Made by a program: the position numbers and the translations under genes. Shown here in pieces: positions 11,128 through 63,678 of a DNA stretch of 64,000 bases; position 1 is the first letter of the stretch; every line of letters starts with the position of its first letter. Source of the stretch: Pocillopora damicornis (Eukaryota); assembly GCF_003704095.1 (NCBI RefSeq), contig NW_020847149.1, forward strand, positions 62,001-126,000, given 5' to 3'. The notes beneath the pieces were generated by a model. That model was given only the letters and a program-made list of their open reading frames with translations. It ran no database searches and was not told the DNA's origin.

Positions 11128-12290
<1,163 letters not shown>

Positions 12291-12763: not shown

Positions 12764-13469
12764 TTAAGCACAAACCAGTGCGAGTTTTTATATTCGATTG
12801 TCCAGGGTCGACTAGCACATTGAAAAGTTTATTTTACGACCAACTTGAGTTTTCCGCATAACTGTAACTATGCCTGGCTAAGATTCGCCTCACAATGTAC
12901 CTGTTTCACTGTGAAAAATACCTTTTAAGATAGAAAATTGTAAAACACCACTCGCGTATCATTTAGCTACGTGTAAAAACCACTGTAAAACTGCGTCATT
13001 TTGTAGATAAGTTCTTCGTATTTTCCCTTCCTTTTTTCGGATAAAGGGGAATACAACCGCTGTACATAATCTGCTCGGCTGCTCGATCATCACAAATGTG
13101 GTCGAATTCAAACCTTTACTAATTCATTTAAATTAAAACACTTTATTTGGTATAAGATTGTGTATGGTTCTTCACTCTACGAGGAAGATTTTCTCAAATA
13201 TTTTATTTAGTTTTACACCTTTGCAAAAGGGTCTACTGGCAATACTGTGTTTCCTTCCATTTTTCCTTACAGTAAGATAAAACGCTGATATAACCTAGAG
13301 AAATAAAATTAATTAATCTTGGATTAGTGGTAACCGTCTTTCGCACAACCTTGTAATGAATATAAAACGTTTCTGGCGATTGTTTTCGTTCCCGCCTCAT
13401 TAAAATGTGGGAAATTAACAACCATTACTGACCAATACCGTAAGTGCTGGCTCCATACTCATGACCACA

Positions 13470-16400
13470 CTATGGCCATATCCAACGAGGTCCTTTTCTC
13501 TCTGAAAGGCCCCAAATAACTCCCATGGACCTTTCTCGTGGGTATCCTAGGCAAAAGGACACATAGCGCACCTCATCGATCACACGGTCCCTATTACGGT
13601 GTTGATGTCCATGCAAATGTACCTTCGAGCCAATCTTTCTGATTTGCTCTTCTATGGTTTTACAACCTGCAAAGCGCGTAAAATTAAACTGGATTTGCGA
13701 TCCTTGGGCTTTGGGATTGTCTAACTGCGGGAGGTGTAGTTTTTTTCTCTCATCTTGGACTCGTTCGATGTCCTCTTCTGAAGCAGGGATGAGTTCACCA
13801 CGAGGCAAAAAATGACTGAAAGATATAATTGGCGCGTCGTAATCCCTTGTTAAAATGTTTTCGTTGAGTTTAGCAAAGTACTGAGCAACAGATCCTTGAA
13901 GCACAGGCCATTTACAGAGATGATTATCCATCCAGACCTTGTTGGACAGTTCTGCATCTTCAGTGTCCCTTCCAACAAATAACGAGTTATGGAGGTCGTC
14001 CTCTGGTTTGGCATACCAGGAAAATATTGGCACAACCCAGGCCGCGGTATCGTTACAGCATTGCACCTTTACTGGTTTGGTATGAACGCCAATCGAATCA
14101 CACATAGCCAAGATTGCGTGGAATTTATCGATGGAATTGTTGTGACAATAGGTATTTTCTACCTGACGAATCCAGAGCTCGTGGTTTCCTGAAATAAAAA
14201 AGATGTATACACAGTCGGTAGGGTAAAAAAAAAATACGAGAAAAGCTTGAGAGTAAATTGAGAACACGAAAATCCCTTACTAAAAAACCAAGTCTGGAGA
14301 ATGGAATAGCAATGATAATGATAAAGCCAACGTGAATTCCTTCGAATGAGGCATGCAAAATAAATGTCTGGTAAAAGGGGGTATCCACCGTCCCCTCCCT
14401 GCATAAAAAATAAAGGTTAGGTGTGGAAGTGACGCGCACAGATCCTCAAGACTAGCCTGTGCAGCTGGATGTTGATGGGAATTTTGAACAATTCGACTTC
14501 TCATTTGGATCTGCTGCTCCAAATGCACATTACTGCCTGAGCTCATCTAGTGTCTTCATACCATGTATTTAACTCCTAAGTGGAGACAGGCTCACTAACA
14601 CAATAGTCATGGTCGATGATAACCTCTGCCATGATCTCAGTCAGTGGAAGGTGTGAGAAAGGGTGGCACCTTTTCTCCTTTCCAAACTGCCACCAGTTTT
14701 TGCTTGCCCTATCTTACAACCCTCTTCCCTGACTGAGAGCTTAGCATAGGGTAGGCCAGGACTTGCAACTGGACATATTAGACCAGATGGATGGATGTTA
14801 AGTATTTGCCAAGGTTTCCAACTAATTTTTGTAATTGTGCAAAATCCTCATCTATCCCTACTACACCTAGGTTACAGTTACTGTATCTCGTAAATAACAG
14901 GCTCTGCTCTACTGTTATATTGATAAAATAGTTGTACAGTCAAACCTCTGAGTATGTACAATTCCCAAAAATGGACACTTGGGTATAAACACAAGTTTCT
15001 TATGTTCTCACAAACCTTTGACAGATACAGACCCTATCTCATACAGACAACAGACACATTCTCTTGTGGAAATTAAATCTCAATCCCAGAGAGAGAGAAA
15101 ACTTCTAAATCTCTTTTCTTCTTACACGCTGGTAATCAGGTGATGATAGCATGTGTATGAAATACAAATTTATGTTTACAAATACAGAAACATAAATGCT
15201 TCATTAACAAGAAACTTAGCCCAAAATAAAGAAAATACCAAAAATACTGATTAGAGAACCAACACTTCTTTGATATTTTACTCTGGTAAGATATTTCTCT
15301 CTGAGTAAAGTACTAAGATTTCTTTGATATTTTACTCTGGTAACTGATATCTGCAGTTGTGAACCCTTCCAATCTTTAGGTGCAGCATTACCTTTGGTGT
15401 TTGTTTCATTTTCTGTTAGACAGTGTCCACATTTTTCTTTTTTTCTCAACAACACAAGTATTCAAACCTGTGCCATCCAGAGACTAGTTGGGCTCCATTA
15501 TCACCTGAATTACATGTACAAAGCTACATGCTTGGAGCAAGGCAAATTTTAGTGGGTTCTTTGCTCCAGGTTAAATGTAAAATCAAGGAAACATTACATT
15601 TTCCACGGTTTTATCTGTTCCCAGTGTTTTTTTCCTATGTCTCCCCTATGCAAAAGAAAGGCAAAGTACTCTGAGATGGATGTTGATTTGTATTCTCCAA
15701 TGAGTCTGAGAGCTTGACTGTGATGAAATTAAATGACCCCTAACAAGAAGATATACCATTTCTAAGAAAATACATATTTCTTTACCAGTGCAGCCAGGGA
15801 ACTAAAACTTTCTAACATTCAGTGATCTATTTTTCAAACTTCTTTCTTCCCACAAAGGATGCACTGTCACTAAAGATGGAGCCAACTTAGAAAATTGTAC
15901 TTTGGCTCTGTGGATTACAGAGCTCATCTGCTTCCATTCACTGAGCCACATGATTGTTTGTATAGTTATTGGGATTCAAGAGTTTCCTTTCTTTGTATCA
16001 GAGAGGAAGAAACATGAAAATCAAAATTGATGGGTAATTTAAAACCAAGAAAATATTTGGATAGAAGAAAAAAAAATGACCTTATTACATGAAAGAATCA
16101 CACAGATTCAAGCCATTTTACATGCAAGTTCAAGTTGAGGATTACGCCATCTTTGACAACCTGTCCTATGATTGGGGCAAGGAAGACACAGGAGCTTAAC
16201 AATTAGCAGACAGACACAACTTTATCCAAATTAAGATTTTCAAAGAAAAATATATAGCATATTGATAAATGAAGTACAAATAATTCATAATGAAAATGTA
16301 AAGTACACACTTAAATACTTGTCACCTTATATGCTACAATAATTTAAACTAAGATAAATTAAAACTAATTTTTGAATAATGTGAAATGTATAATTTTACA

Positions 16401-17387
16401 GTCATTTTTTAAATCATATGCTGTAACTTTTTTCACTTCATTACTCTATATGCTGCTTAAAGTTTTTCAATTTTAATGTTTCAATAACTAGCAGTGTCAG
16501 ATGCAAAGGAACATCTTCCACATTTCATGGTTTACACATCTAGTCCTGGTTTTTTGGAGGGTCGGATAGGACTATCCATCAGATAAATATGTGTCCAATG
16601 GATAGCACAGTTAGTTTTGTTAACACATATATGCTGGATAGCAGTTTGTTTGGTTTAAATGGGCCCTGGAATCTAGATTGAAAGATCCATGTTTGAGACC
16701 TGGTCATCATTTATGTTGTCATGTTCTTGGGCAAGAGCCTCTTAAAATGCTCCAATTACCTCTTTGATCTACACCCATGAGTATAAATGGGTTCCAGTAA
16801 ACTGCCAAGAGAACCTGGAAAAATGCTGGAAATAACTTGTGCTGGACCAGCATCTCACCCAGGGGGGTCAGGGAACTAACAAAACTCCTTCTTAGTTTGT
16901 GCTAATTAAACCAGGATTAGTGGGCTTGAGAGAATTCTCAAAAGTTATGCAAATCCTCGAATGTATCTTAAGTTTGCATAATTATTCTGAATTCTTACAG
17001 GTCACCTCGCGTTTAGATGAGGCTAAATAAACACGGAAGACGTCCTCTACAGCCCACATTTCTATCATGTTCATCACCTGAGTTATTTAAACTTGTGACG
17101 GACCATTGCAACGCTGTTTAATAATGATTTACTCAAGTACACAAACCTGGAACATAGCAGACCTTCGAAAACTTTTGAGTCAGTGACGTCAAGACTGTTT
17201 TGAGCAGAGACAAGTTATCCGTCACATCCCCAGCAAGAATGAGTACGTCATTTTTGAAGTCAACGTCTGACCAACTATTAACCAAACGAAGGTTTTCGGG
17301 AATATCAACGTGAATGTCTGAAATGGCAAAAATTCGTGACATTCTTAGTGCAGAGGAGGACAAATATCGGCTTTTGGCGAGAAGCAT
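13470..17387 (-). CDS. Calcineurin-like metallophosphoesterase of the PptH (ACP phosphodiesterase)-like group, 2 exons
   Basis: join(complement(17147..17387),complement(13470..14188)). The intron splits VPG|NHELW. Motifs are AISDIH, LAGDVTD, PGNHELW, SHF, HGHQH and C-terminal LGYPRE. Start is uncertain (17438, 17387 or 17342). The PptH assignment is from recalled motif similarity, not a search. Confidence 0.88.
16543..16670. mobile_element. Degenerate palindromic MITE (GGATA/TATCC-rich family)
   Basis: Shares GGATAG...TATCCA...GGATAGCACAGT...TTTTGTTAACAC...GCTGGATAGC with the copies at 35375 and 41181. Confidence 0.6.
16690..16920 (+). mobile_element. Decayed CORE-type SINE (approximate ends)
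   Basis: TGTTCTTGGGCAAGA...CACCCATGAGTATAAATGGGT...GGACCAGCATCTCACCCAGGGGGG. Its 3' part matches, in reverse, the fragment at 48552-48660. Confidence 0.6.
16926..17040. repeat. Hairpin-type interspersed repeat fragment
   Basis: GAATTC...TTATGCAAAT-spacer-GTTTGCATAA...GAATTC inverted arms. Confidence 0.55.
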
Positions 17388-17438
17388 TCAAACCAAGTGG
17401 ATAGTTGGCTGTAATATCCAAACAGCTCGGTCCGCCAT
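17388..17438 (-). other. In-frame upstream ORF MADRAVWILQPTIHLV* whose TGA directly abuts the metallophosphoesterase ATG
   Basis: The minus strand reads AAAC-ATG GCG GAC CGA GCT GTT TGG ATA TTA CAG CCA ACT ATC CAC TTG GTT TGA ATG CTT. Confidence 0.7.
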
Positions 17439-19345: not shown

Positions 19346-20908
<1,563 letters not shown>

Positions 20909-23900
20909 GACCAGTCAATCGCGAAAATCAAAATCTCCGTGACTCGAGCACGACTCCTTTTTGAGGTTTTATGCACGCTCATAAATCCACGCGCCAAAGT
21001 CTTTGCTGCTACAGCTGATTTCGCTGAGTGAATCCTTCAAGTTAATGGCAGTCTTTTATACTCACAGCCGACAAAATTGGCAACTGTCTGCTGCTAATTT
21101 CATAATAGCAGTTGCTAAACGATGGACGGCCCTCAGAAATATGCTGTTTTCTCATTAAGCCATTGGTAAAATTGATTAGAGGGCCCCATACAATACATAA
21201 TCGAAAGAACCGACTTATTAGTATCTTCACAATAAACAAACAAATTGTTCACGTATCCTTTTAACTCAAACATTAACCTATAATTCTGTGCGTTCGCCTT
21301 AATGATTTAAATTGGTCTTTATGGACCATGATAAGAAATAAATAAAGCCTGCAAATTTAATATATGTTTTTGAGAAGGAGAAATTAAGAGAAAACTTCCT
21401 CAACAGCTTTGGGGTTTTCACTCTTTGCGGGCCACTTTAACAACAAAATCGAATCTCTTTTTAAACAAAAGAATCAGTTTTAATCATAATATCCGTTCAA
21501 AGCTTTTGCCAGCGAAATGTACTGTCGGCATACGACATGTGGTAGCGAAGACAAAATTGGCATTGTTCTAAAGCCTTTTGTGTCGCCTGAGTTAATTAAT
21601 ACTTTTGTAGCGAAGTAGAACACACGAGATTCACTTCCTATTCCAGAGAAAAAGAAACACGCCAAGGTTTCTGTTTGATATTCATTTCTATTCAAGCAAA
21701 ACACCTGTTTCGCAAGTTTTCATTCATTAGGCTGGTCATCTTCGATACAACAAGGCAATTTGCTTGCAGGAAAGCTTTTTAATTCATCAATTATCCTATC
21801 CCGTTTAATGAGCAAAAGATATTTCGGAGTTTATTCCTTTAAAATTAACTCGACAAGAGAAAATTATCGATAGTTGCTGTGGGTTCCAAAGGCAATTAAT
21901 TCGCTGAAAACAATTAAAAGGTTGAGATTGAATAAGAGGGAGTGAAATCGATCCCTTCATGTGCTTCAGTTCCAGGCCTCAGTTCTTTTTTGTCTGATTT
22001 ATTTTATATACGATTTCTAAGAAAAGATTGTTGGAGAACATAACGTTTTGTACAAGCTGAAACACCTTTCTACAAAGAGTTGCTTTTTGGGGACTTAGAT
22101 GCAATATTCAACGCGGCTATTGTGTATATTTAGAATCAATTAAGTTGGTTTAATGAGTTCCTCTTAACCTAATATCAGTAATTTTCAATCCATTTCGTCA
22201 TTTTAGTGGATCAAATAAGAAGGTTTCTTTTGACCACGCAATAAAGAAAGGTTAATCTCTTGGAATCAATCGAGACAGTCTTTACTGGGTCGCTAACACG
22301 ATCCAATGACGGTAATCGCGTTTATCAATGACGGATTATCAGGGGTTTTACTCATGCACAAACAAATCGAAAAGCAATAACGTGTTCGTTCGCGTGTATT
22401 ACTGAAGGGTCGCAAAAAATTTACTGATTGAAATAGAATTCCAGCCGTGTAATTCCAAAGTCATAAATTTTTTTCGTTTAATAACCTTCTTTTTTATTTT
22501 GCGAGAGACACATTCTCAATGTAGCTGTTATTGAAGTAGACTTGCTAACTTGCCCCTCCTACCACGAGCAGGCAGGCGTTCCTAGTGTTCAAAACCGCAC
22601 TAATCGCATCTGATAACCTAACAATTCACGGGATAAACTGATCCGACTCGAGTCTTGTCAAGCTGCACGTATCATGTTTTTTTCCTCAGTTTCATAACTA
22701 AGTAATCTTAGCAAACTCAATTGATTGGCTAATATGCAGGATAATTTGATTAATGCAACGAGAACTCTTTAAATGTGATCTATGACCAAACAAGTTCGTT
22801 TATACGGCTAGCGTGTTTTGATGATAACATACGAGGGGATGAAATGCCGGCCACTGATTCTAGAAACGTGATAAAAGAATTTCTGCTAAAAGATAGGAAA
22901 ACCACTGAGTGAGGTTAGGATTTGAAAAAAAATTGACATTTGAAAGCTAACGAGTTATTTGCTCAAGAGGAAAGAACAAAGATACAGATCATAATGCAAA
23001 ACTTTCCGCCATGAGATTAGGAAATGCGTTTAGTTTTTCACCAGTTTTTGTGAGACTTTTTCTTTATGGATTCGAAATGTTAAAAATAGGGTTTCAAGAA
23101 TTATTCAACACTACGATTTGTGGCTCGGCAGTTTTGCGTCTTTTCGATCAATTTAGTTATGTTTCAAAATAAAGGTATTATGATCACATTAAGATGACAA
23201 GCTAATTAGAACACTAATGCTATGAATACTAGAATAATTAAGCAGAGTTTTGAAATCTTGTTTTCAAAGGGTATTTCTGTTTAGTTTGCGAGATTCAATT
23301 TTCTTTCATATTGCTTTTTAATCCAATAATCTGGACATGTCAAAAACTTGTTTGAATGGTTAAGCATCGATGATTTTCAACAAAAATTCACATTTCAACA
23401 TACAGGAACTTTCAATTCTTAAATGACAAATATAGAGACTTTTACTGCAAAGAATGACTGTTTGAAAAGTTCTCTCGGTTATGGTAATTTTTCAATTCAC
23501 GACAGAGCGAAAGATGATTAAGTTATATCCTCACTGAAATTCTATTATTTGCTGTTCAAATAGTCTTTTGTGTGACATATAATGTGAAGGGGTTGAAGAT
23601 TTGATTTAAAAATAAAGACCGTGAGACAGATGTCCGAGAGAAGAAAATTTCAGAATTGTGGATCTGAAGAGCGGATTTATTCTACCCGCGCGTGTGAAAC
23701 TTTTTCCACTGGCTAAATTGTTTTCTGGTTTCCACTTTCTGCCATCTTGTCGCGCGGCAAGTTGTAACAGTTGAAAATCAACAAAACGATGAGACAATGC
23801 AATTTTACAAGGTCTTCGTTGTTTTGTCAATTTTTTTTTGGAAAAAAATTGAGTCATAAATAAAACCAGTGCGGTCTTAATTTAGACTCTGGCGCAGCAG

Positions 23901-26152: not shown

Positions 26153-29100
26153 CTATGGCGATCGACTGACGAACAACGATCCTTTTGCTGTCGACCTGCG
26201 CTTTCGTTTGCTTCGACGAAGTCTGATCTTCGTCGGAGTGGCCTCGACAATCCTATATCGATCGGTCTTCTTGCGTTTTGATCTGCTGATATGGCTAGAG
26301 TCGCTGTCGTTGTCGTTTCGGCGTCGTTTCTTTGTAGATTTCACGACAGAGTATAGATTGTCTTGAAATCGGACAACTTTGAGGGGTGTCACCGTCTGTG
26401 CGGGCTTCCAAGGAGGACTCGGCGTTCCTCGGAACGATAGTTGAGTCTCCGACTTTCTCTTCGGGGTCCTACGTGATGGTGGCGAAGATGACAGCTTTGT
26501 TGGTGTCCCCTGGCTCTTATCAGTGGTGGATTTCACTGCGACGGGAGACCTACTCCTTGTTCTTGATCTGAAAAGTAAGGGTTGTGAATAAGTAAGAGGG
26601 TTGTGAATAATTTGTGTGACTGAATGTTTCTATCAAATTTTTACATTCTAATAATCGCATTATTCATAATGAGAATTTGCATCCCTATGTACCAATAGAT
26701 ATGACGGATGATTTGCTTGGCCATAAACGTATCGGCCTAAACTATTCAACCTGTTCTGATTGACTGACAACTAAATAATTGTTTCAAAGATGAATTTTCC
26801 GAATTGCGATAAAATTATTTCCACGTTTCGTGCTTACCTTGTTACACAAGTTGTCTTTGATGGGTCTCCCATCCTATTACTCCTAACTTCATCTTCAAAC
26901 TCTTTCAAACTCTTTCCTCGTCCTATGAGCCTGTCCAGTTCTGCGTAAGTATTTCTCCGTGTGGCGGTCACCTTGTGTTGTGTACTTGCGACATGTTTCT
27001 CTATTCCCACGTAATTTGCATCACACAGTTCACAGTATCCCTTCTTGTCTTCACTTCCTGTTGGTTCCCGGGTGATCTTACGTCTGTTACTCCTCCTTGG
27101 ACTCTTGGATGAGCTTCTTGATCTCGTGCGCATGCTCACAGGTTCATCAAATGGCGAGAAGCCGGGTGGGGCGTCTAAGTTAAGCCGCGGCCAGACCCTG
27201 AGTTCTTTGACAAGTGGCTTGTATTCTCTGAAGAGGAACAAACACTAACTATTGGTAAATTGTAATTTGATGTATCGATTTTTTTTAGATTATCGTTAAC
27301 ACGTAGCAGGGGGTTTTACCTGGGTTCTGACAACCAAAGAACGAAGGTATTACGAAGGTATTTCCTCATGAGCTCCAGACAGTTTACGAACTGCAAACCA
27401 AAATTTTTTTAACTCAACATTAACTTAAACTCGTATTACCTTTCCTTTGAAAGCTAATTGTTTTTTGAAATATTGTAGCTCATCAATGCGGAGCACTCGG
27501 TCTAACGACTTTTAGCTCGTCATTTAAAGACAGATAAACCTACTTGCTGGCTGTACAATATGGCCAGAATTCTTCATAATAAACTCCTCCCTTTCATTTT
27601 ACAGCAAGCATGTAAATTTATGTCATTAGATCACTAACATCGGGTCTCGAATTTAGAGCAAAGTACAGGTACTCACCGACTGTGATCTTCCACTTTCAGG
27701 AAAGCTCCCCGCAGGCTGCACATGCGACAAGTTGACTCAGCGTTTGCTTGTCGCTTCTTCTGCTCATCAATCCATTTTAAAACCAGCTCAACCTGTTTGA
27801 CTTGAACTCCCCACGTCTGTGCATTGGTAAAGACATCAGTACTCTTGACTGCGCGCTTCTCTTGCTTAACTGACTTTTGGAGCATGGCTTGAGCACGAGT
27901 TTGCTACGAGAAAGAAGGAAATCGGTTTATTAGTTGCGATTTAAGTGCCAACAGAGTAATATTCATTATTGTTTCCTGGATTTGCTAAGGCTGAGGGTTT
28001 TCAATCGATTGACTTAAAAAACACGTAACTTTTTCCACCAATTAAGAAAAAATAAAGAAAATAAAAAAAATTTGAACCAACGTAAACGACACTATTTCCT
28101 GCTCGAAGTCGCTAAGGTTTTTTGTATCATTTTTTTGTAAAGGGCATCTTCCGAAATGTCCCTTTGTTCTGATTAGCTTTGGCATGTCTTCGGTTTTGGT
28201 TTCATGAGACTCAATCAGAAAGATCCCGCTTATTTACTGATTACAAAAGATGTAAACAATACATAAAACTTACCCCCCGAAGTCTCGATAAGGCAAAGTC
28301 AGTGGATTCTTTCTTTTGAGACGTTTGGCGGAGCGATGTTATCGGCTGGTCTGTCACAACGCAGGAGAGATCCTTACTCAGAAATTTCTCGACCACCTAA
28401 AGAAAAAAAAAATGGAGTTGGACCCGTTACTCTGTTAATCTCCGATTCTGGTTTGTGCTTAAACGCGAAAATGTCCCTTCAAACCATCAAAAATGCAAAC
28501 AAACTTTACAAGTCACGTACAAGCATTCAGCCCTCCCCGCTATGGAACCTGTTCTAATCGCTAACATGTGGGTAAACATGGATACTCACCCCTCCCAGCT
28601 CCTTGATTTTCTTTTCCACTTCCCTCGCTTTAACTGCTGACCGTACGTGAATGAAAAATGTTTTTCCTTGAAGCGAGGTGACAGGGTATTGCAAGCGACA
28701 GCGACTACGTACTTCAGGAGCTAAAGTAATGAAAAGAAAGCAGAGAAGTGTTCCTTGTGAGAAAAAGTGTGAGGAAACCTAAATTATAAGCAAACTTAAC
28801 CCTTCTAATGTGAATTTTTTTTTCTTGTTCAAAGCGTCGAAGAGGGAAAAGCGTCAAAGAGATCAATCTTCATTGACCTAAAACAGGATGAATGGTTGGA
28901 AACATCAATAAATTCAGCGCAGGATGGAATCCAATTAGACGAGAAACAATCAAGCATACCCTCATCCTTTCTGATGATGTCTAGACAGCAATTTAGTTTC
29001 ATTGACCAATGCTACCTTAAAATCAATTAGCGAACGATAAAACTTGAAAATTGCGCAGCTTTTTTTTAACGAAGGAATCAAACAACTAGATTGCTTCGGA

Positions 29101-47200: not shown

Positions 47201-50200
47201 TCTTTTATTTCAATAGAAAATAGTTTTTAATTAAAAATAAATTAATGTGAAGATGTTTGTCCATTGTTATAGGGTTACTGGAATAGTTGTAGTTGAAAGC
47301 AACAAAAGTCAGTGAATTACCATGAATGGTGACTAAATAGTTTGTTGCACTTTTTTTTTTTGGCTTGGAATGATGAAAAATGAGCAATTTGCGCTGGATT
47401 TACACCAAAAATTTCTGTAACCATTCCAGGAATAGATGGTTAAAATCATTTTTTTATACTATATCATTTCACTGTTGTAGTACATACTAAAACAACTATT
47501 CACCTGTAGTGGGGGTAAGTAGCTGGTTGTACACTGTAAAAACTTACCTCACCACTCCAGGGTACAGTAAACGTCAAACACCAGCCACCTGCACCTGGGT
47601 AAATAATTTTAATTTAACAAAGGGAGTTGGTTTAGTTAGTCATTTGCTTTGTTAAAGATCTAAAAGTTCAAATGTTTTGTATCTTTACAGATTCTTTTTA
47701 AAATTTTTCCTGAAATGCAATCAAAATTGTTTAAAAAATGCTGGAAATCCAAGGGACATGAGACGTTTCCAGGTAAAAAGAGCATTGACCTTAGATTTCA
47801 AATATTGCTTCCTTTTCTTGAGTGACCAAATGCAAATTACTGGTTCATGGGTGAAAAGGTTCTTGTCAGGAAATATTAAAAAACAATTCATTTTTCCTTC
47901 AGGTGCATGTTTCTTCCTCTCCTGATCCTGTTGCTGGAATGTTAGCTTGCTCTGATAACATGTTTGTGCATAACAATTCCAAACACGGTAGGAAAAGCCG
48001 CAAAGTGGAGTCTGCATATGGTAGGTTTTTATTTAAATGCGATGAAATAAAGGAAATGAATCGAAATATTAACAACATGCTGAGTTTTATCAGTAATCAT
48101 GCAAAAACATTGTCAGTGGTCATTTTTATGTTACAAATGTTGAGTGTCCTTTCTAATATAATGTTACTAATAGTTCTTAAATATCTCTTTGTATTTTGCA
48201 GCTTATCCATGTATCAAGGCTATTTGTCCCAATGAGGGATGGACAACTGGAGGAACAAATGTTGTAGTAATAGGAGAAAACTTTTTTGATGGTCTACAAG
48301 TGGTGTTTGGCTCACTAATTGTTTGGAGTGAGGTAATATATGATTCATTTGGTGGGATTCTAAGGGGTGGGGGGATTTTATTATAAGTTTGAAAAGTATT
48401 ATCATCAAGTCATGCTGATGAACAAAGCTTTCAATTGTTATCTGTGGAAATATGACCTTTTTTTTTAGCTCTGTTCAGGGGTTTTGTTTAAGGTTTGTTG
48501 ACATCACTTCGCATTGATTAAGTTTTTGCCTATAAAAGTAAAGCCTTTATATGGGCCCAAGTGGCCCATGGGGCTGGTGCTTAACTTTGGTTTTCTTAGC
48601 ATGAAGCGGCTAGGAGTATTGCTACTCCCCCCTGGATGGGATGCTAGTCCATCACAGGGTTAAAGTTTTTGCCTATGCTAATGATTAAAATAGCTTTAAA
48701 AGCATTTTGTTGAGTAGTCAAGGTTCAAGATTTCTCAAGCTTAATTAGCTTCATGATTGTGTCTACAGTCATATGTTAAAAAAAATTAATCTGACCGCAG
48801 ACATTAATCCTGTTTGTTTATTGGAAAAAAGGAGGGAAATTTCAAGTTTTCAAAGTGTTTGAGAGGGGGAAGTTGGGGTGAAACAATTGGTAGAAAACAC
48901 AGGAAGTAGTTGGACAGTGAGACTAGCTTACAGTATAATGTGCCTTGTGGCTTATTAAGCCCCCTGTAAGTGGGGGATTTCTTTGCCTTGATCTTAAGTT
49001 GAATTATTGTTGCCTTTCCTATGGATGAAGTTTATCACCCCTAATGCAATCCGTGTCCAAGCACCACCCAGACCCATCCCAGGCATGGTAGAAGTAACAC
49101 TTATGTACAGAAACAAGCAGTTCTGCAAGACAGCCCCTGGAAGATTCATGTACTCAGGTAAGAAACTGTAAAATATGAAGTGCTTGTAGTCTTTATTTAA
49201 TTTCCTTCTTTGTGGCCGGTCAGATGGATAATGAAGTGCAAAAAATTGCAAATCAGATTTCCAATGTTTATTAGCCAAATTTAACCATCAGTTACCTGTA
49301 GATGGCTTAGATTTTCAGCTTGCTTATTTTACTATTTCATGGCACCTACATCTATGAATGTTTTTGCCATTGTCAAAGAAAACTTTGCAAGAAGTCATCA
49401 TACTGTTTAAGTTTTTATATTGTTTTTATATTGGTTAATCAGTGATTAATGCTGTCACTCTATCCTTTGATTACAGCTCTTTGTGAACCAACCATTGACT
49501 ATGGCTTCCAAAGACTGACAAAGCTGATCCCAAGACACCCTGGTGATCCTGAAAAGTTACCTAAGGTAAATTATATATGAGATATGTTGGTTTTCCTTCT
49601 ATAAGATAGGATGAACATTAAAAAATTTCTTTAAATAGGACTTGAAAATTCTCATTTTATTACAAAACAAGGTTCTCTACAGGAGTGAGCAATCTAGAAT
49701 TTTCTTCAACTGAGAGAACTTAAAAATTTGATTTGCATATCACTATTTGCAGTTATTACCATTTCTGTTGTTAAGTTACTTTTGATCTTTGTGAGAATCC
49801 ACCTTGTACTTTCTCTACAGATTATCTCTCATCTGTTGAATTATTTTTCTAGGAAATCATTTTAAAGAGAGCAGCTGATCTTGCTGAAGCTGTGTGTTAC
49901 AACCTTCCTCGCACCCCAACTCAAATTCATGGGTCACAGTATCCACCCCCTGGGGGGCCACCACCCACCACTGCTGGTGGCACACATCCAATGATGATAG
50001 GACAGCACCTGACAGCCCTGTCCCCTGAAGGAATTACAAATGGAAGTACCTTCGTGACCATTACAAATCCAGAGGCTCCAGTCTATGGCAACACAAACCC
50101 TGGCAGCCAACAGCAGAGAATAGCAACTTCTGGGGCACACACTGATGCCAATAATAATGAAGTTATTGTCTCATCAGGTACTGATAACAACAGTCAAGGT

Positions 50201-53070
50201 TTTTCATGGAGGGTGAGGTTGAGGTGGTGGTTGCTAAAAATATTGGATGGTTTGGGTATAAAAATATGTAGTATAATAAGCCAATAATATCACATTGAGG
50301 ACAAGTATATCCATGAACTTTGTGAGTAGAGAGTTGTTGGAAAAGTGAGCAAGATTGTACTTTGTTGTGTTTTGCGTTGAGGCTCTTACTTTGAGGCCTT
50401 TGTTGTATGCCTTTGAGGCTTGTAACATTGGAGGCCATATCTCAAAGATGTGAAGTATCCAATACTATGTATTGTGTTTGTGTCCATTAGGTTTAGTTAG
50501 ATGTGGAGGACACAATATGTCATTTCTACCTGGTTTCACTTGTTCAGCAATCTCATATCTGTTTTCCTCCTCAGATGAATTGTTCTCCGTAATAGACCAA
50601 GTTGAACAATATAGATGGTTAATAAATTTTTTTACACTCTTAGGTAGCAGCACTCCAACTGCAAGGCATGTCAATTTGCCACCTGGTTATCCCCATGGTG
50701 GATCTCTGGCAAGTGAAGCACATGTTGTCTCCAATTCTGATGTGCCTGTAACACCCTCGGCAGCAATCAGCATGTCAAGTGCTGTAAATGGTATCAATGC
50801 ATACCCTGGGGGACTTCCACCATCGATTACATTACACAACATGGCAGTTCCTTCATCACCAAGTTTCCTCAATGGTGCCACATGTAAGTTAGAGAGTTTC
50901 ACAACGTCAAGTTAACTCTATTGATAACTCTATTTTATTGGTTATTGCTACACTTTTTTCACCGCACTATTTATTACTGGTAACTTGTAGAAATCTGTTT
51001 AACCATCTGATGATTATTTGATTTATGCCCATGTTTGGCCCATGGAAAGATTGTTTATTAGAGACTGGGTACTTGCTTCTCAATAACATTTTCACTCCCT
51101 TGATCTCATTAGTATTTGTCCTTCCTATCTGCCATACAATTCTTAAATGTTAGTTTGGAGATTTTGGTATTGGATCAACTGATAATCCCCTAATTTATAT
51201 TTTTCTTTATTTTCACTGCTTGTCTGCTTGATACTGTATTGATATTGTGAGGAGAAATTCTGTCTTGGTCAATAGTTGGAGATCTTTTCTTAAATTCTTT
51301 ACATCATTTTAAAGCCAAAAACAAAGCAGAACTTTGGAGGAGCTGATGATCCTTGGAACAAAATGTGCCTTCACTTGGAAATACCAATTAAGACAAATTA
51401 TAAGTAAATGAATATAAATCTATGCTTGTCAACCAAGCTGCATTTTGTTTTACTCAATCTTGCATTGTGTTTAATGTTATAGTTGTTCCCCAATCTCCAT
51501 CACTTCCTCCAACACCCAGCAGTGTACCACCCAGTGGAAATGCAGGAATGTTTGCCTTTCCACCAAACATGATTCAGGCTGTCAAACAAAAGAGTGCATT
51601 TAATCCTGTGATGAGACCACCCAATGTGTCTGAGGGAAGTACACCCACTGGCTCACATGGAAACTCTGCTGTTATTGTGCCAGGTGAGTGAGAAGAAAAT
51701 GAAATTGTTTGAATTAGTGCTCATTTTTCTTAATAATAGATGAAATACTTTAGATGACAAGAAATGAATTTATTCTCCTAGGTAAAATGTTACTTTAACC
51801 CTTCAACACCTGAGAATTGCTAGTATCTACATTAAATTTCTCCCAACTTTATCATCCCTGAATGATACATTCAGGTCATGAGAATAAAGGAAATGATCAC
51901 CAACTAAAGAACCTGTTGACTGGTTACGTAAATTCGTCTCGTCGGCACCTAGGATAATGTGTAGAGAACAATATGGAGATTATGCATACTGATGTTAGGG
52001 TTAGTGTCAAGTGTTGATAAAAGCCATTTCAGCAGGAAATAAGTCAGTGTTTGATAAGGCTGGAACTGTGCACCCTTGTTAAATGCTACTTCAAACGTAG
52101 GTACAAAACCAACGTTGGGAGTAAGGAAGATTTTAGGAAGTTCTTTGAATCTAACCCTAAACTGAATTTCCGTTTCTGAGTTAGTCATCGCGAATATTTA
52201 AGAATTTGTTCATGCTTAGCGTGCGGATATCGAGTTATGGATGCAAGCGGGAAGTTTGGAGAGCGCGAAAAATGCGTAAGAGTAGCTCGAGGCGCAGCCG
52301 AGAACAACTCTAGCTCTAACTCAATATACGTACAGCTAAAAGCATGAGCAAATTCTTTTATATAACAGAAAAAGATTTTCCATCGGGTTGAAAATGTTAC
52401 GAAACAATTGGTTCATACGTCAGCTGTGCGTTCATCGAGATATGAAGCACGCGGGAAGTTTGGAGAGCATGAAAGATGTGTAAGAGTAGCTCGAGGCGTA
52501 GCCGAGAGCAACTCTAGCTTCTTGACTCAAGAAGCTAGAGTTAGCATTCTCTCTAGCTTCTCTAACTCTAGCTTCTTGACTCAAGAAGCTAGAGTTGCTC
52601 TCGGCTACGCCTCGAGCAACTCTTACGCATCTTTCGTGCTCTCCAATTGGAGAATTGGTTCAATTGGTTCATACGTCAGCGTGCGTTCATCGAGATATGA
52701 AGCACGCGGGAAGTTTGGAGAACACGAAAGATGCGTAAGAGTTCGAGGCGTAGCCGAGAACAACTCTAGGTTCTTGAGTGACGTCTTAAACATTGCAGTT
52801 TGGAGAAGTTTGGAGAACACGAAAGATGCGTAAGAGTTGCTCGAGGCGTAGCCGAGAGCAACTCTAGGTTCTTGAGCGACGTCTTAAACATTGCTTTTTG
52901 CTATGGTTTATCTGTTTATACTAGAATGGCCGAATATCGACTGCTTACGCGTTATCGTGGTTTCTTCATATTCTACAGGTATGCCTTCCTCCTTTGGTGG
53001 CACATTTGCAATTCCTGTAAGTGCTGCAGTCCAGTCCAAGCCAGCGAGCCATGTGGGAGCAACCTCTTAA
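44283..53070 (+). CDS. COE: Collier/Olf/EBF transcription factor (15 coding exons)
   Basis: Exons 44283-44371, 44559-44715, 44825-44882, 45395-45450, 45947-46020, 46179-46247, 47691-47772, 47903-48020, 48202-48332, 49031-49157, 49477-49565, 49853-50177 (or 50198), 50644-50883, 51483-51683 and 52979-53070. Motifs: [24 protein letters not shown], zinc knuckle [17 protein letters not shown] domain, HLH with a single H2 helix ([13 protein letters not shown], the non-vertebrate state) and C-terminal AVKQKSAF. Confidence 0.97.
48552..48660 (-). mobile_element. 3' fragment of a CORE-type SINE
   Basis: AGCATGAAGCGGCTAGGAGTATTGCTACTCCCCCCTGGATGGGATGCTAGTCCATCACAGGG is the reverse complement of the 3' part of the element at about 16700. 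Confidence 0.6.
51799..52000. mobile_element. piggyBac-type MITE
   Basis: TTAA|CCCTTCAACACC left end and a body aligning with the 32354 copy. Confidence 0.7.
52200..52894. repeat. Tandem and inverted cluster of a hairpin repeat in the last COE intron
   Basis: Four forward copies and one inverted copy of TTTGGAGA(G/A)CACGAAAGATGCGTAAGAGTTGCTCGAGGCGTAGCCGAGAGCAACTCTAG, plus two identical 33-bp palindromes at 52510-52542 and 52564-52596. Confidence 0.9.
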
Positions 53071-54996
53071 GTCACCGCATTACAAGCACAAGCACAAGCA
53101 CATCACGCACACGGGGTCAGAACATTGACTGCAGTGAACAATTGCTCAGGAGGCTTCGCTGGAGAAATAGAATCGGCATTATTATGTACTTAGAGAAGAT
53201 CACACTGTTGAACAATCGAAAAATTGCCTTGAATCAACGAAATGCTTTGTGCGTTTACATAGCCGCCGAAGTAACTGGTGACTCTTAATTTCTTTGTTCA
53301 CAGAGTCTATGAAATTCTAATTTAACATCCTGAGGAGGCTTTGCCATTAAGGAAGATAAAACGTCGCCTTGTTTTATCCAGCAGTCCACTTTAGTATGTG
53401 TATATATATATATTTTTTTTCATTGAATTTGTTTGTTTTACACAAGTTTTCTACAAACGTACTCTATTTTGGAGTCTGGGAAATAATCGAATTTTTTAAT
53501 ATAAATTTAAGATATATTTTTTCAGGCTTTTTCTTTTGAGAGAAAAATTATAAATATTCATTGAATGCGGACACAATTAGTGTCGTATTATTTTCCTAAA
53601 AGTTAATATATTTCTTGTACTATACGTATTTTTCAAGCAATATTGGACGGTTTCGAACATTTTTGAGAAGCAGTTGGAATAATGCTTGAGTCGTACAACT
53701 TAACTTATTTTTCTATAAACGAAACGCTATTTCTATAATGGATACAGACTAGAATAATTTCACATTGACCGTAAACGATATTTATTTTTTCCTAGTTTGT
53801 AAGATGATAATTATTTAGAATGGGTTGTAAGTATTTTAATCGGTAAATCGTAGATTTCCCTTCGATTTACTTAAATATGTATGGAACAATTAAGCCAAAT
53901 GCAAAACAAGAAGCATACAGCAACCACAACATCCACTGCAGCATATTAGAAAAGTGGTCGAATTGGAATAATTTTCTTGGAGAATATTCCGTAGCACAAA
54001 ACTTCGTGTCACACAATTTTGTCACATAATTCATCTTTAACACTATGTCACGCAGAAGACTGTTATGTGACAGTCTTGTGAAGGCCATGTGCAAGTTCAT
54101 TGATACGCTCTAAATATCTACCATAAACTGTAAACGTTCATCGAATCATAACCAGTTCCTATCAATTGCAACATGTTTAAAACAGGTTTATCTGTTTCAT
54201 CCTGTAATAGCCGAGTATTTTCCACGTGTTCTCGAGAACGTGTAGATATATTTTTGGTGTGAGACGTTTTTTTTTTAACTAATGGTGTGAAATTAAATAT
54301 ATATTTTCAAACTCATTGTGTCGCTTTTTGAAGTCCACACTGCCATTAACCTTTAATTTTTGAGCATCGAAAATCATCAACTCTTACTGGGTTTTGTTTG
54401 TCTCCAATCGGACTCAAGCGTCCGAAACCGAACGAAAGTGTCCTAAATCGGAAATATTTTCTCTTTGTGTGTTCGTGCGAGGTGTTATCTTTGCAGATGG
54501 CATTTTCATGGTTTTTTTTTTCTGATTATCAAATGAAGCACGAGGCGACGTGCTTTTACGTGCTTTTAAGGGGGATATGTTTCCGGAGAAACAACTATGG
54601 TACTGCTTCAGCGGGGCTGTTATCAACTTGGTTGATGAAGAAAATTGGCCATCGTAAAGATGTTGCTAAGCTTTGAAAACTCTACGGTGGCCAATTCAAA
54701 ATATTCAACTCGGTTGATAAAACTAAATTATTTTAAAACCTGAAGCAGTCTTTATTTTTTCCAAATCCTTGATCCCTGCGCGGCTTCTGTTTCGCTCGGA
54801 CTACGATTCACCCCAGCCTCGAACAAGCGGGATCGGAGCGAGAGATAACCTTATCGGGTCGGGACCTATCGGGTGAATGGATCTTTTTTGAATGGGCTGT
54901 GCACACGATACCTGTGAATGGTCCTTCGTGTCCATGCCCTTAAGGACTTACCTCTGACAAAGCCAAAACATTTCGTTCGGCACAATGACCTGATGG

Positions 54997-60900: not shown

Positions 60901-63678
60901 AGACAGTCATGAACATAATGTTTCTACACTGTCCTTGAGTCAGCAATCTTTTTGATGTTTTAGACAAGATAGGCACTGCAAATTTATACTTTTATGAGCC
61001 TAAAGTTAGACCTGATAAACATCATCTCCTCACCATATTGTGACTCTTGAAGTAATGAAAATGGCTGACAAAACCTTGCAGACAAGCTGATGAACTTTAC
61101 CAGCTTCCAGCTCTTATATACAAGCTTGCAATAGGGAATGGAATTATCATTCACATAACTTTTCTTTTCATATTATTTTGGGTTCATCTCTCAAGAGTGT
61201 CACTTGATAGGATTAGGACAGTAATTTATGACCTAACCTTTTTTCAGGTTATCCCTGAGAAATTGTTCTGCAGACGTGACAAATAAATTTTTTGCACTTG
61301 TTGGATATGAGATTGGATATAGCCAACAGGCTTGCATTGAAAAATCGCTAAAACTTAGGCTATTAGTAGGTATGGATTGACATGTTTTAAAATTCTTTGG
61401 TCTTCTTTAGATACAATATAAGAGAGAATAGATGGGAAATTATTCAAGCTTCAAATGAAAAACATCAACGACCATCAGCAAGATATGGGCATTCATTAGT
61501 GGCATATGATGTAAGAATCAGAATAATCCTTCCTCCTTTGCAAAAATGCATGTCGTAGTTGTGTCTCTTCTACATTTAATAAAGGAATGACCAAGCTAAT
61601 ATTTACCAGTGTGGAACTCTCTTCAAGAACTGCTGACTATAAAGGCCTGTTCAAATGCACACAAAATTTTAATGCAATAGAAATTCGACCATTTCTAAAC
61701 TTAATCCAACACCATTGAACATCTTATAGCATGTTGTAACGTGTAGCTATAGGGTGGCCAAACAGGTGCAACATGTTGCATGCAACAATGTTGCAAGATG
61801 TTGCATTTGAATGTTATATACATTTGACCAGGCCTTCATGATATCAATGCGTTTGATTGACTGACAACAATAGCAAATTGGTTAAATCAGATTGCGACCT
61901 TACTACCAAATGTGGTAAAATATCCAATTTGTCCTTCATTTCCGGTTTCAGAATCACCTCATCTTGTTTGGTGGGACTTGCAAGAAAGGAGCTGTTTCTA
62001 ATGAAACCTGGATATTAAACACTACATCAAGGCAGTGGACACTGTTAAGAAGTTCAGTTTATAAACCAGTGGGTGTATCAGGACATACAGCCACTGTTGT
62101 TGAAAATGAGATGATTGTTTTGTTTGGATATAATCCTGAACAAGGGGTTTCAAACTTGATCCAGGTATTTGGGCTTGGTGAGTGAATGGCACATCTAGTT
62201 TTCTTCATTTCTTTAGTGATAATTTCAGACTGAGGACTCTGAGTTTGAGGAAGGGTGCTTCACCAATCAATACATGTGGTTCCAGTAAAAGTGTTCAGGG
62301 AAACTAATATATGTTAGGGGGAGGGAGGGAGAGGGGAAAGGGTTTGTCTGATTTAAATAAGCACAACCAGACATACTTAGTAGTACCCTAGCTCCCACCT
62401 TCTCAAGCCTGTTTCACACCTTAGGTTGGTCGGCCTTAAGGTAGGCAAGCACCACCAAAGCAAGGTGAAAGTGGGGAATAGGGGAGTGAAAGACTGCTTT
62501 CTTCTCATCAGTCACCTTCAAGGCGGACTTCATCACTTTTTTTGTTTGGTTATCACAGTCAACCACTATTTATGAGCCTGGACCTTCTATGCCTTAGTTT
62601 GGTTGTTATTTTTAACTTACTCTAAGGAAGTAAACTTTTGATCATTTTTATCAGTGGACAGAGTGTGGAGATCAAGTAAAGTAGACTCATCTATCGTCAG
62701 ACCCACCTATGGTCACAGCAGTGTGCTTCACCCAGGTACAGGACGTATTTATGTTCATGGTGGTTACAGAATGCTTAACAGCTCCTGCTACAGAGCATCC
62801 AGTGAAACGTTCTATTATGAGTCCAAGGCTGGAAAATGGTACCAGCTGCGTAATATTGGTATACCAAGGTTTCTTCATTCAGCAGTCATTATTGATAGCG
62901 CAATGATCATTTTTGGTGGCAGAGGAGAGAAGGAATTGGTATCGCGCCACCTGATGGTGTTCGACATTAGTGAGTGTCCTCCTTGGCTTTCTCGATTTTT
63001 CCAGTGGTATTTCAGTGTGTATCCAGCTTGTATGTTTCAATTTTGAGTGCCATTTTTCTTTCTAATTTTGCTAAGACTTAAAGCAAAAGTTTGTTTTCGA
63101 GTTTGTGTCATCATGGAAAGTTTTCTTTTGATAAAATCCCAATGGATTTAGCTGCTCACAACACATTGTGAGAACCATTGCGTTTCGTTTTGATATATTT
63201 TTTTTTTCAGTTCTCACTAAAAGTAATGTTATGATTGTAGCGGCTTCATTCCTATAAAAAATATCAATTATTGTATCGATTATTAGAGGGAATATAGTCA
63301 AGGAATCGGATGATTATGATCGTCTTATCTTTCGTGGTACAGTGGCAAAGGCACAGACAATTATACTGCTTAAATCTACAAGTAGCTTTTAAAAAACTTT
63401 GAGCTCGTCTGATCAGGCAATACATTATTTTCAGATGAAATGAAATGGAAATTTCCAATCAATACTACTGTACCAAAGACTGCATCTCGTTATGGACACT
63501 CATCTGTGGTTGTTGACAGGTGAAAAGTTTCTTTTGACTTGTTTATGGCTTCAAGATATTCGTATGATTTGTCTGCAGTTGCGCGAGTGAAACTGTTCTT
63601 TTTGTTTTTGTAGCATCATGTATGCCTTTGGTGGATTTGCAGGACTTATGTTTAACTCTTTCCTTCAATATTCCCAAG
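54997..63678 (+). CDS. ATRN: Attractin-like protein (signal peptide, CUB, EGF, kelch repeats), 5' part; continues beyond the right edge
   Basis: Exons 54997-55157, 56582-56656, 56815-56934, 58155-58283, 58672-58850, 59668-59730, 60410-60515, 61411-61510, 61952-62177, 62655-62969, 63435-63519 and 63614-63678 are phase-compatible. CUB: AWLIE, LYIYDG.S..SPLIA, ATSG.AL. Two EGF repeats follow. Kelch: SSHAM..FGG, RYGHS, GHTAT..LFGY, YGHSS..YVHGGY, RFLHSA..FGG. Domain order fits attractin/ATRNL1 better than MEGF8, but orthology is untested. Confidence 0.85.
57019..57426. mobile_element. MITE with about 30-bp imperfect TIRs
   Basis: GATCAATC..TAGCTTCAACATCCC ... GGGATTGCTGAAGCTTCAAATCGATC. Confidence 0.6.
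61643..61835. mobile_element. Harbinger-like MITE with TGTTGCA/TGCAACA internal repeats
   Basis: TIRs AGGCCTGTTCAAATG ... CATTTGACCAGGCCT. Confidence 0.7.

Follow-up and report, generated by a model that had tools for sequence, protein, structure and literature searches.

Structure and expression of the gene

The window analysed here is a stretch of 64,000 nucleotides from the coral Pocillopora damicornis (contig NW_020847149.1, positions 62,001 to 126,000). Its minus strand carries a gene of two exons, and the 319-residue product contains every motif that an initial annotation of this DNA had named (DIH, GDVTD, GNHE, SHF and HGHQH, plus VPGNHELW, MCD.IGV and LGYPRE). Sequence comparison and structure modelling support the view that the gene encodes a calcineurin-like metallophosphoesterase, a predicted animal member of the family of PptH (Rv2795c) from Mycobacterium tuberculosis. 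The product is identical (319/319) to the P. damicornis RefSeq protein XP_027055840.1 (P0288), which is named uncharacterized, and the gene is single-copy in the coral genome assembly. Among the donor-acceptor pairs tested, only one joined the exons (17387-17147 and 14188-13470) into an open frame of 319 amino acids. The features of the locus are as follows.

17421, 17436, 17437, 17437, 17446 and 17451, minus strand: 5′ ends of six spliced RNA contigs, which weakly suggest where transcription starts
17388-17438, minus strand: upstream open reading frame of 16 codons, with its ATG in an ATGGCGG motif, in frame with the gene; its TGA (17388-17390) abuts the first ATG
17343-17387, minus strand: leader of 15 codons, opened by the first ATG in a weak context (T at −3), a candidate short mitochondrial presequence
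17340-17342, minus strand: second ATG, encoding Met16 (A at −3), at which the catalytic domain has its conserved start
17147-17387, minus strand: coding part of exon 1, codons 1-80 plus one base, with the leader, Met16, D24/H26 (DIH) and D54 (GDVTD)
14189-17146, minus strand: single intron of 2958 nt, GT-AG, phase 1, inside the Gly codon of VPG/NHE
13470-14188, minus strand: coding part of exon 2, codons 81-319 plus stop, with N82/H83, D168, H206, H275/H277, GYPRE and an insert
12900-13469, minus strand: 3′ untranslated region (UTR) as far as it was examined; three of four contigs continue beyond 12900
13207, 13147 and 12833, minus strand: AATAAA signals in the sequence

Exactly this intron was skipped in assembled contigs of four out of four RNA runs, which came from four studies. 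In four further runs the identical joint was seen three times, as a loose end, and the fourth run gave an unspliced, DNA-like read-through. A seventh spliced contig stops early, at 17333. The intron position is common to other corals and apparently also to bilaterians. Directly before the GNH motif, 18 of 20 partial records with this motif carry unrelated sequence, as expected if these open reading frames extend from an intron located at this position, and several of these records are closest to bilaterian proteins. Furthermore, the mature part of the protein is under purifying selection, with proportions of non-synonymous (pN) and synonymous (pS) differences of 0.09 and 0.65 between the window and the locus L115. 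A homeobox gene (Pfam Homeodomain) lies on either side of it, at 11988-12290 (plus strand) and 19349-20914 (minus strand); the two look Emx-like and Not-like, and linkage of Emx and Not is known. The nearest non-animal relatives of the gene are bacterial (40-49% identity), which could point to a contaminant from bacteria in the coral assembly, or to a pseudogene. The splicing in four studies, the shared intron position, the selection on the mature part, the homeobox neighbours and the single clade formed by the animal proteins (support 99/97) refute this and leave it virtually no probability. The earlier proposal of a true host gene is thus supported.

Assignment to the PptH family and distribution

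In a search of the PDB by sequence, the structure of M. tuberculosis PptH (6UNC) was the only significant match (E 1.1e-13; next 0.016). A model was built with AlphaFold2 on P0004, a protein 98% identical to that of the window (pLDDT 92, pTM 0.90), in which residues 1-11 are of low confidence. Foldseek again returned 6UNC as the best match of this model (E 1.3e-16; next family 4e-6), and VIA-align aligned 261 residues of 6UNC at a root mean square deviation of 2.7 and a Z of 29.4. Other calcineurin-like phosphoesterases (Mre11, Lmo2642, MPPED2, Rv0805, the ADPRM-type 2nxf and Dbr1) share the two-metal fold and its ligands, but reached a Z of at most 15.1.

The residues D24, H26, D54, N82, H83, H206, H275 and H277 are conserved at 97-100% across 117 family rows, in line with a match to PF00149, and P134, D168, G255 and E299 are likewise conserved. 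N32, P134, Y139, D168, G255 and the G-Y-x-x-E motif are common to Streptomyces, plant and proteobacterial members, and R210, R264, R278, R280 and R282 are kept in the animal rows and in those of close bacteria. Besides the fold and the full metal-binding set, the coral protein shares the GNHELW, MCD-x-GV and GYPRE stretches with PptH. In the alignment to 6UNC, its H275 is matched by the leading His of the GHLH motif and would be the counterpart of PptH His246, assuming an offset of three residues in chain numbering; the Asn mutant of that residue is inactive. The coral protein differs from PptH in having an insert of about 25-30 residues, an intron, two starts and a leader, at an identity of only 21-25%, and it is known here from sequence and model.

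No NCBIfam model exceeded its cut-off; TIGR03729 came to 52.7 and 53.6 bits where 148.25 are required. A search of the ESM Atlas returned only generic phosphoesterase clusters. RefSeq already labels orthologs of the window protein 'acyl-carrier-protein phosphodiesterase PptH(-like)', among them those of Pocillopora verrucosa (XP_058961821), Nematostella (XP_001641232.3), Acropora, Oculina, Montipora, Branchiostoma, Antedon and Diadema. These names appear to be automatic transfers and are silent on localisation and on the two starts. The family label itself is therefore no discovery. The placement of the protein in the PptH family, which the initial annotation had suggested, is supported by the 6UNC match, the fold, the conserved residues, the transferase genes beside some relatives and one fusion protein, the last two being described below.

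PptH has been described as limited to mycobacteria (PMC8557913), whereas we found homologs across many bacterial phyla and in eukaryotes. Among the 120 best of 1088 matches, orthologs about 46-86% identical come from cnidarians, Trichoplax, amphioxus, hemichordates, echinoderms, Lingula, annelids and gastropods. Separate searches gave remoter homologs from Arachis, Balamuthia, Pygsuia, Klebsormidium, Symbiodinium and Eimeria. Names of vertebrates, tunicates, arthropods, nematodes and sponges were not found among these 120, which is no proof of their absence. Four of the plant and eukaryote-like homologs (P0262, P0253, P0164 and P0211) carry long N-terminal extensions that resemble, by eye, plastid or mitochondrial transit peptides, and are candidates for acting on organellar acyl carrier protein (ACP). 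One sequence from a bacterial genome bin (L100) is identical to P0177, a eukaryote-like protein with a long leader, and this bin may be contaminated.

We calculated a careful tree of 43 chosen rows and a quick tree of 117 rows. In the former, the 12 animal rows form the single clade mentioned above, nested in a group (97/99) with 17 bacterial rows, while three other eukaryote rows (plant and protist homologs) fall outside this animal-bacterial group. A tree that holds all 15 eukaryotes together was rejected (approximately unbiased test, p 0.0065, LG+G4), for a grouping chosen after the quick tree. The bacterial companions of the animal clade are aquatic bacteria. This pattern is consistent with an ancient acquisition of the gene from bacteria, close to the base of the animals, of which the direction is not proven and no donor was identified.

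Genomic context and carrier proteins

How phosphopantetheine is attached to carrier proteins has been well studied. For its removal, PptH is described as an enzyme with a Mn-Fe centre that strips the phosphopantetheine arm from its own and from foreign carriers of fatty acid synthases (FAS), polyketide synthases (PKS) and nonribosomal peptide synthetases (NRPS) (PMC8557913). The same source describes AcpH of Escherichia coli and other Gram-negatives, which catalyses the conversion of holo- to apo-carrier that we propose for the coral enzyme, as having an HD-family fold unrelated to PptH (PMC8557913). Two papers also list a metallophosphoesterase, which may or may not belong to this family, in PKS clusters, once beside a transferase (PMC5819245, 10.1101/2020.09.18.303172).

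We opened the best 80 of 473 bacterial loci. At least five of these closest loci have an Sfp/EntD-type 4′-phosphopantetheinyl transferase within 6 kb, where the 66 transferase matches in 46 of the genomes would lead one to expect 0.27. Since Pfam was applied to cluster representatives plus a single direct neighbour for each cluster, remoter small AcpS-type genes may be missed. The five loci are distributed over roughly three distinct branches within the animal-containing clade. At three of them (L026, L036 and L045) the transferase is directly upstream on the same strand, at a gap of 9-19 nt. L036 and L045 also carry a carboxylic-acid-reductase-like protein with a carrier motif, and the order at L045 is reductase with carrier domain, transferase, phosphoesterase. 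In these marine gammaproteobacteria (L045:1749-6900 and, in Spongiibacter thalassae, L036:5299-12864) the reductase-like carrier protein, the transferase and the PptH-type gene stand together and would provide a native enzyme-substrate set for assays. Elsewhere among the loci, in Calditrichota, the gene follows a cysteine desulfurase-like/SelD-like fusion (L004:1208-3412 and L079:3066-5273).

Plasmids gave 34 matches, of which six were opened. A transferase adjoins the gene at three of the six and an NRPS/PKS precedes it at one. On an Agrobacterium vitis plasmid the order is PKS, transferase, phosphoesterase and fabD, on two Streptomyces plasmids the PptH-type gene overlaps the transferase, and on a Vibrio nigripulchritudo plasmid it lies behind the NRPS/PKS. 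In addition, a protein of 980 residues (P0417, found in three Logan contigs) has a PptH-type domain at about 218-484 fused to an AASDHPPT-type transferase at 523-737, which to judge from its domains is writer and eraser in one chain.

Carriers are also encoded by the coral itself. Its genome holds a mitochondrial ACP (L085), two PKS-type carrier domains and one NRPS-like domain, a count that is a lower bound. Two intron-containing PKS-type genes (L084 and L086, at G000:C3843 and C2496) have exons that were labelled by eye as ketoreductase-like, carrier and thioesterase-like. On this indirect evidence, and by analogy to PptH, whose relatives also pair with a transferase, we regard carrier-protein hydrolysis as the most likely activity of the coral enzyme, and as a probable one.

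Two in-frame start codons and the proposed function of the coral enzyme

The span first reported for the gene ended at 17438, which is the upstream in-frame ATG and not the start of the protein; the frame of 319 residues opens at 17387. Bacterial members and the leaderless animal models start where the coral protein has Met16. A leader of 7-26 residues followed by a second Met is present in 18 of 25 named animal genera and absent from seven (P0345, which lacks the motif, was excluded from this table). In gene models, the coding region tends to be extended to the first ATG.

In the corals, the first ATG lies at exactly −45 nt, without indel or stop, in all seven genomic loci with a full exon 1 (five distinct sequences). 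A star-tree simulation gave a chance of 0.03-0.04 that the ATG and the open frame were kept in three deep lineages, a rough figure that ignores indels and constraint on the UTR. Coral leaders have R/K at position 7 in 8/10, L/F at 9 in 10/10, S at 11 in 10/10 and R/K at 15 in 8/10, although the last may just mirror the purine at −3 of the second ATG. At −3, the first ATG has a T in five of six coral sequences and Met16 an A in all six. Since Met16 is the conserved start and has the better context, a leaderless cytosolic form is likely. A weak first ATG ahead of a better second one is the arrangement expected for leaky scanning, and the preserved −45 position together with Arg7, Leu9 and Ser11 fits a minor mitochondrial form made in this way.

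The leader is basic, rich in Ser and free of acidic residues, as originally described, but on its own this is near chance (p ~0.10): at least three basic and no acidic residues were found in 10% of 1000 ATG-started open frames of 15 codons in the window, and its hydrophobic moment was reached by 19% of the same frames. Across lineages, a net charge of +2 or more was seen in 10 of 10 representatives (combined Fisher p 0.006). Counted from Ser17, Arg7 and Arg15 occupy −10 and −2, positions that occur in the definitions of the R-2, R-3 and R-10 presequence cleavage motifs (PMC7723863); this is a pattern fit and not the prediction of a trained tool. It suggests Ser17 as the mature end, in which case the processed long form would have the same N-terminus as the short form after removal of its Met.

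No more than about 13 nt separate the upstream ATG from the observed transcript 5′ ends, a geometry that resembles the TISU element as described in PMC3177215. The ATGGCGG motif is conserved upstream of exon 1 in the window and in L115-L121. In five of six distinct coral sequences it is in frame with the gene, each time with a stop that closes the frame, and its distance to the first ATG varies between 51 and 79 nt among coral loci. We presume from its sequence that the motif is TISU/YY1-like. Selenocysteine insertion or read-through at the TGA (17388-17390) was rejected, because in the five in-frame coral cases the upstream frame is closed at differing positions and varies in length, and because none of the RNA contigs altered this TGA. 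The idea of transcripts that exclude the upstream ATG was likewise dropped, as two contigs reach 17446 and 17451.

On balance, we favour the reading that the coral enzyme converts holo- to apo-carriers, mainly in the cytosol from Met16, and that the longer form from the first ATG may enter mitochondria. By analogy with PptH, a Mn/Fe-type centre would activate water and cut the phosphodiester at the serine, which would return the holo- to the apo-carrier and oppose the transferase. The putative substrates are the carrier domains of the same genome, namely the two PKS-type domains, the NRPS-like domain and mitochondrial ACP. Ribosomes would leak past the first ATG, with its pyrimidine at −3, to Met16 with its A, and initiation at the first ATG would add the 15 residues that hold Arg7 and Arg15. 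That the mitochondrial form acts on mitochondrial ACP is a tentative and rather doubtful part of this proposal. Several observations weigh against a targeting role of the leader. It is short, with only 15 residues, and has a net charge of 0 in Acropora and of +1 in P. meandrina, in the Stylophora-type P0005 and in L119-L121; the Fisher test was confined to lineages with a leader and let Pocillopora stand for all stony corals. Purifying selection on the leader was not detected at the protein level (pN 0.40 vs pS 0.33, window vs L115, 14 codons), and seven of the 25 named genera lack a leader.

The carrier link has its own counterevidence, and the main alternative, though a less likely one, is that the PptH-fold phosphodiesterase now acts on a different substrate (a small nucleotide, a compound related to coenzyme A, a lipid phosphodiester or another serine-linked adduct), with carriers used only on other branches. 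No transferase or carrier gene was visible at 75 of the 80 closest loci, where the mixed neighbours encode thiamine pyrophosphate enzymes, TRAP transporters, short-chain dehydrogenases/reductases, sulfatases, peptidases and others. The five transferase-linked loci are all gammaproteobacterial. In 251 genomes of the order of Spongiibacter (Pseudomonadales) 22 matches were found, L100 among them, and only one of the 21 new loci has a transferase within its 1.5-kb flanks. Two of the six plasmid loci have no carrier context, and the fusion to a transferase occurs in only one of 15 long homologs, others joining the domain to TPR, rhodanese, GNAT, WWE or DnaJ. The low identity to PptH points in the same direction, as does the animal-bacterial clade having an FNF motif and an insert of its own. 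This insert, near residues 213-247 and common to the closest bacteria, could alter the substrate: the last two metal motifs are 69 residues apart in the animal clade compared to 41 in Streptomyces members. It is, on the other side, also carried by the transferase-linked close relatives (56-63 residues). Moreover, linkage to a transferase or to PKS/NRPS genes spans the clade that holds the animals, its proteobacterial sister group and the actinobacterial outgroup, so that one ancestral function is the simplest explanation, and no other neighbour recurs across unrelated phyla among the 80 loci.

The initial annotation had instead proposed a mitochondrial enzyme that edits mitochondrial ACP (or PKS/FAS carrier domains) and would thereby act on mitochondrial fatty acid synthesis, lipoylation and Fe-S assembly. 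In its strict form, this would be a dedicated mitochondrial enzyme with the first ATG as its main start. The composition of the leader, its Arg residues at −10 and −2, the low confidence of the first 11 modelled residues and the mitochondrial ACP gene would all agree with this. Nevertheless, we consider it very improbable, given the better context of Met16 in all six coral sequences, the leaderless genera (the models of sea urchin, crinoid, Owenia, Capitella and Glandiceps have no such leader), the zero net charge of the Acropora leader and the similar pN and pS of the leader; besides, a Met stands at the position of Met16 in only 5 of 49 long-leader family representatives. The enzyme is more likely a mainly cytosolic one with a possible mitochondrial form.

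Elsewhere in the window, open frames at 26156-27244 (minus strand), 49853-50912 (plus strand) and 62642-63043 (plus strand) presumably encode a DBF4-type zinc finger protein, a COE/EBF factor and a Kelch protein, respectively. A repeated unit in overlapping frames at 52366-53285 (plus strand) is probably a repeat element.

In the mostly open literature that was searched we found no published study of a eukaryotic PptH-type enzyme and no paper using the RefSeq PptH(-like) label for animals, although the homolog lists of the PptH discovery and structure papers may mention eukaryotes. Such an activity in animal tissue is reported to have been described in older biochemical work, none of which turned up in this search. 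The earlier statement that the enzyme is uncharacterised in animals thus holds for the papers found, but not for the name, which RefSeq already gives to orthologs. The arm-removing enzymes described in PMC8557913 are bacterial, and their purpose is there called unknown.

A single-copy, intact ortholog that extends from placozoans and cnidarians to amphioxus provides a concrete and cheaply assayed animal candidate, and a knock-out in Nematostella is possible. We suggest, as a speculation that is hardly the probable outcome, that corals and many other invertebrates kept a bacterially derived arm eraser, acquired a single time close to the base of the animals, and that its two starts would place it in cytosol and mitochondria, where it would switch mitochondrial ACP off. 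If the proposed function is true, this would be the first identified arm-removing enzyme in an animal, and lipoylation, LYRM-dependent complex assembly and polyketide synthesis would be under its direct control. If the long form reaches mitochondria, the holo state of ACP would be enzymatically reversible there.

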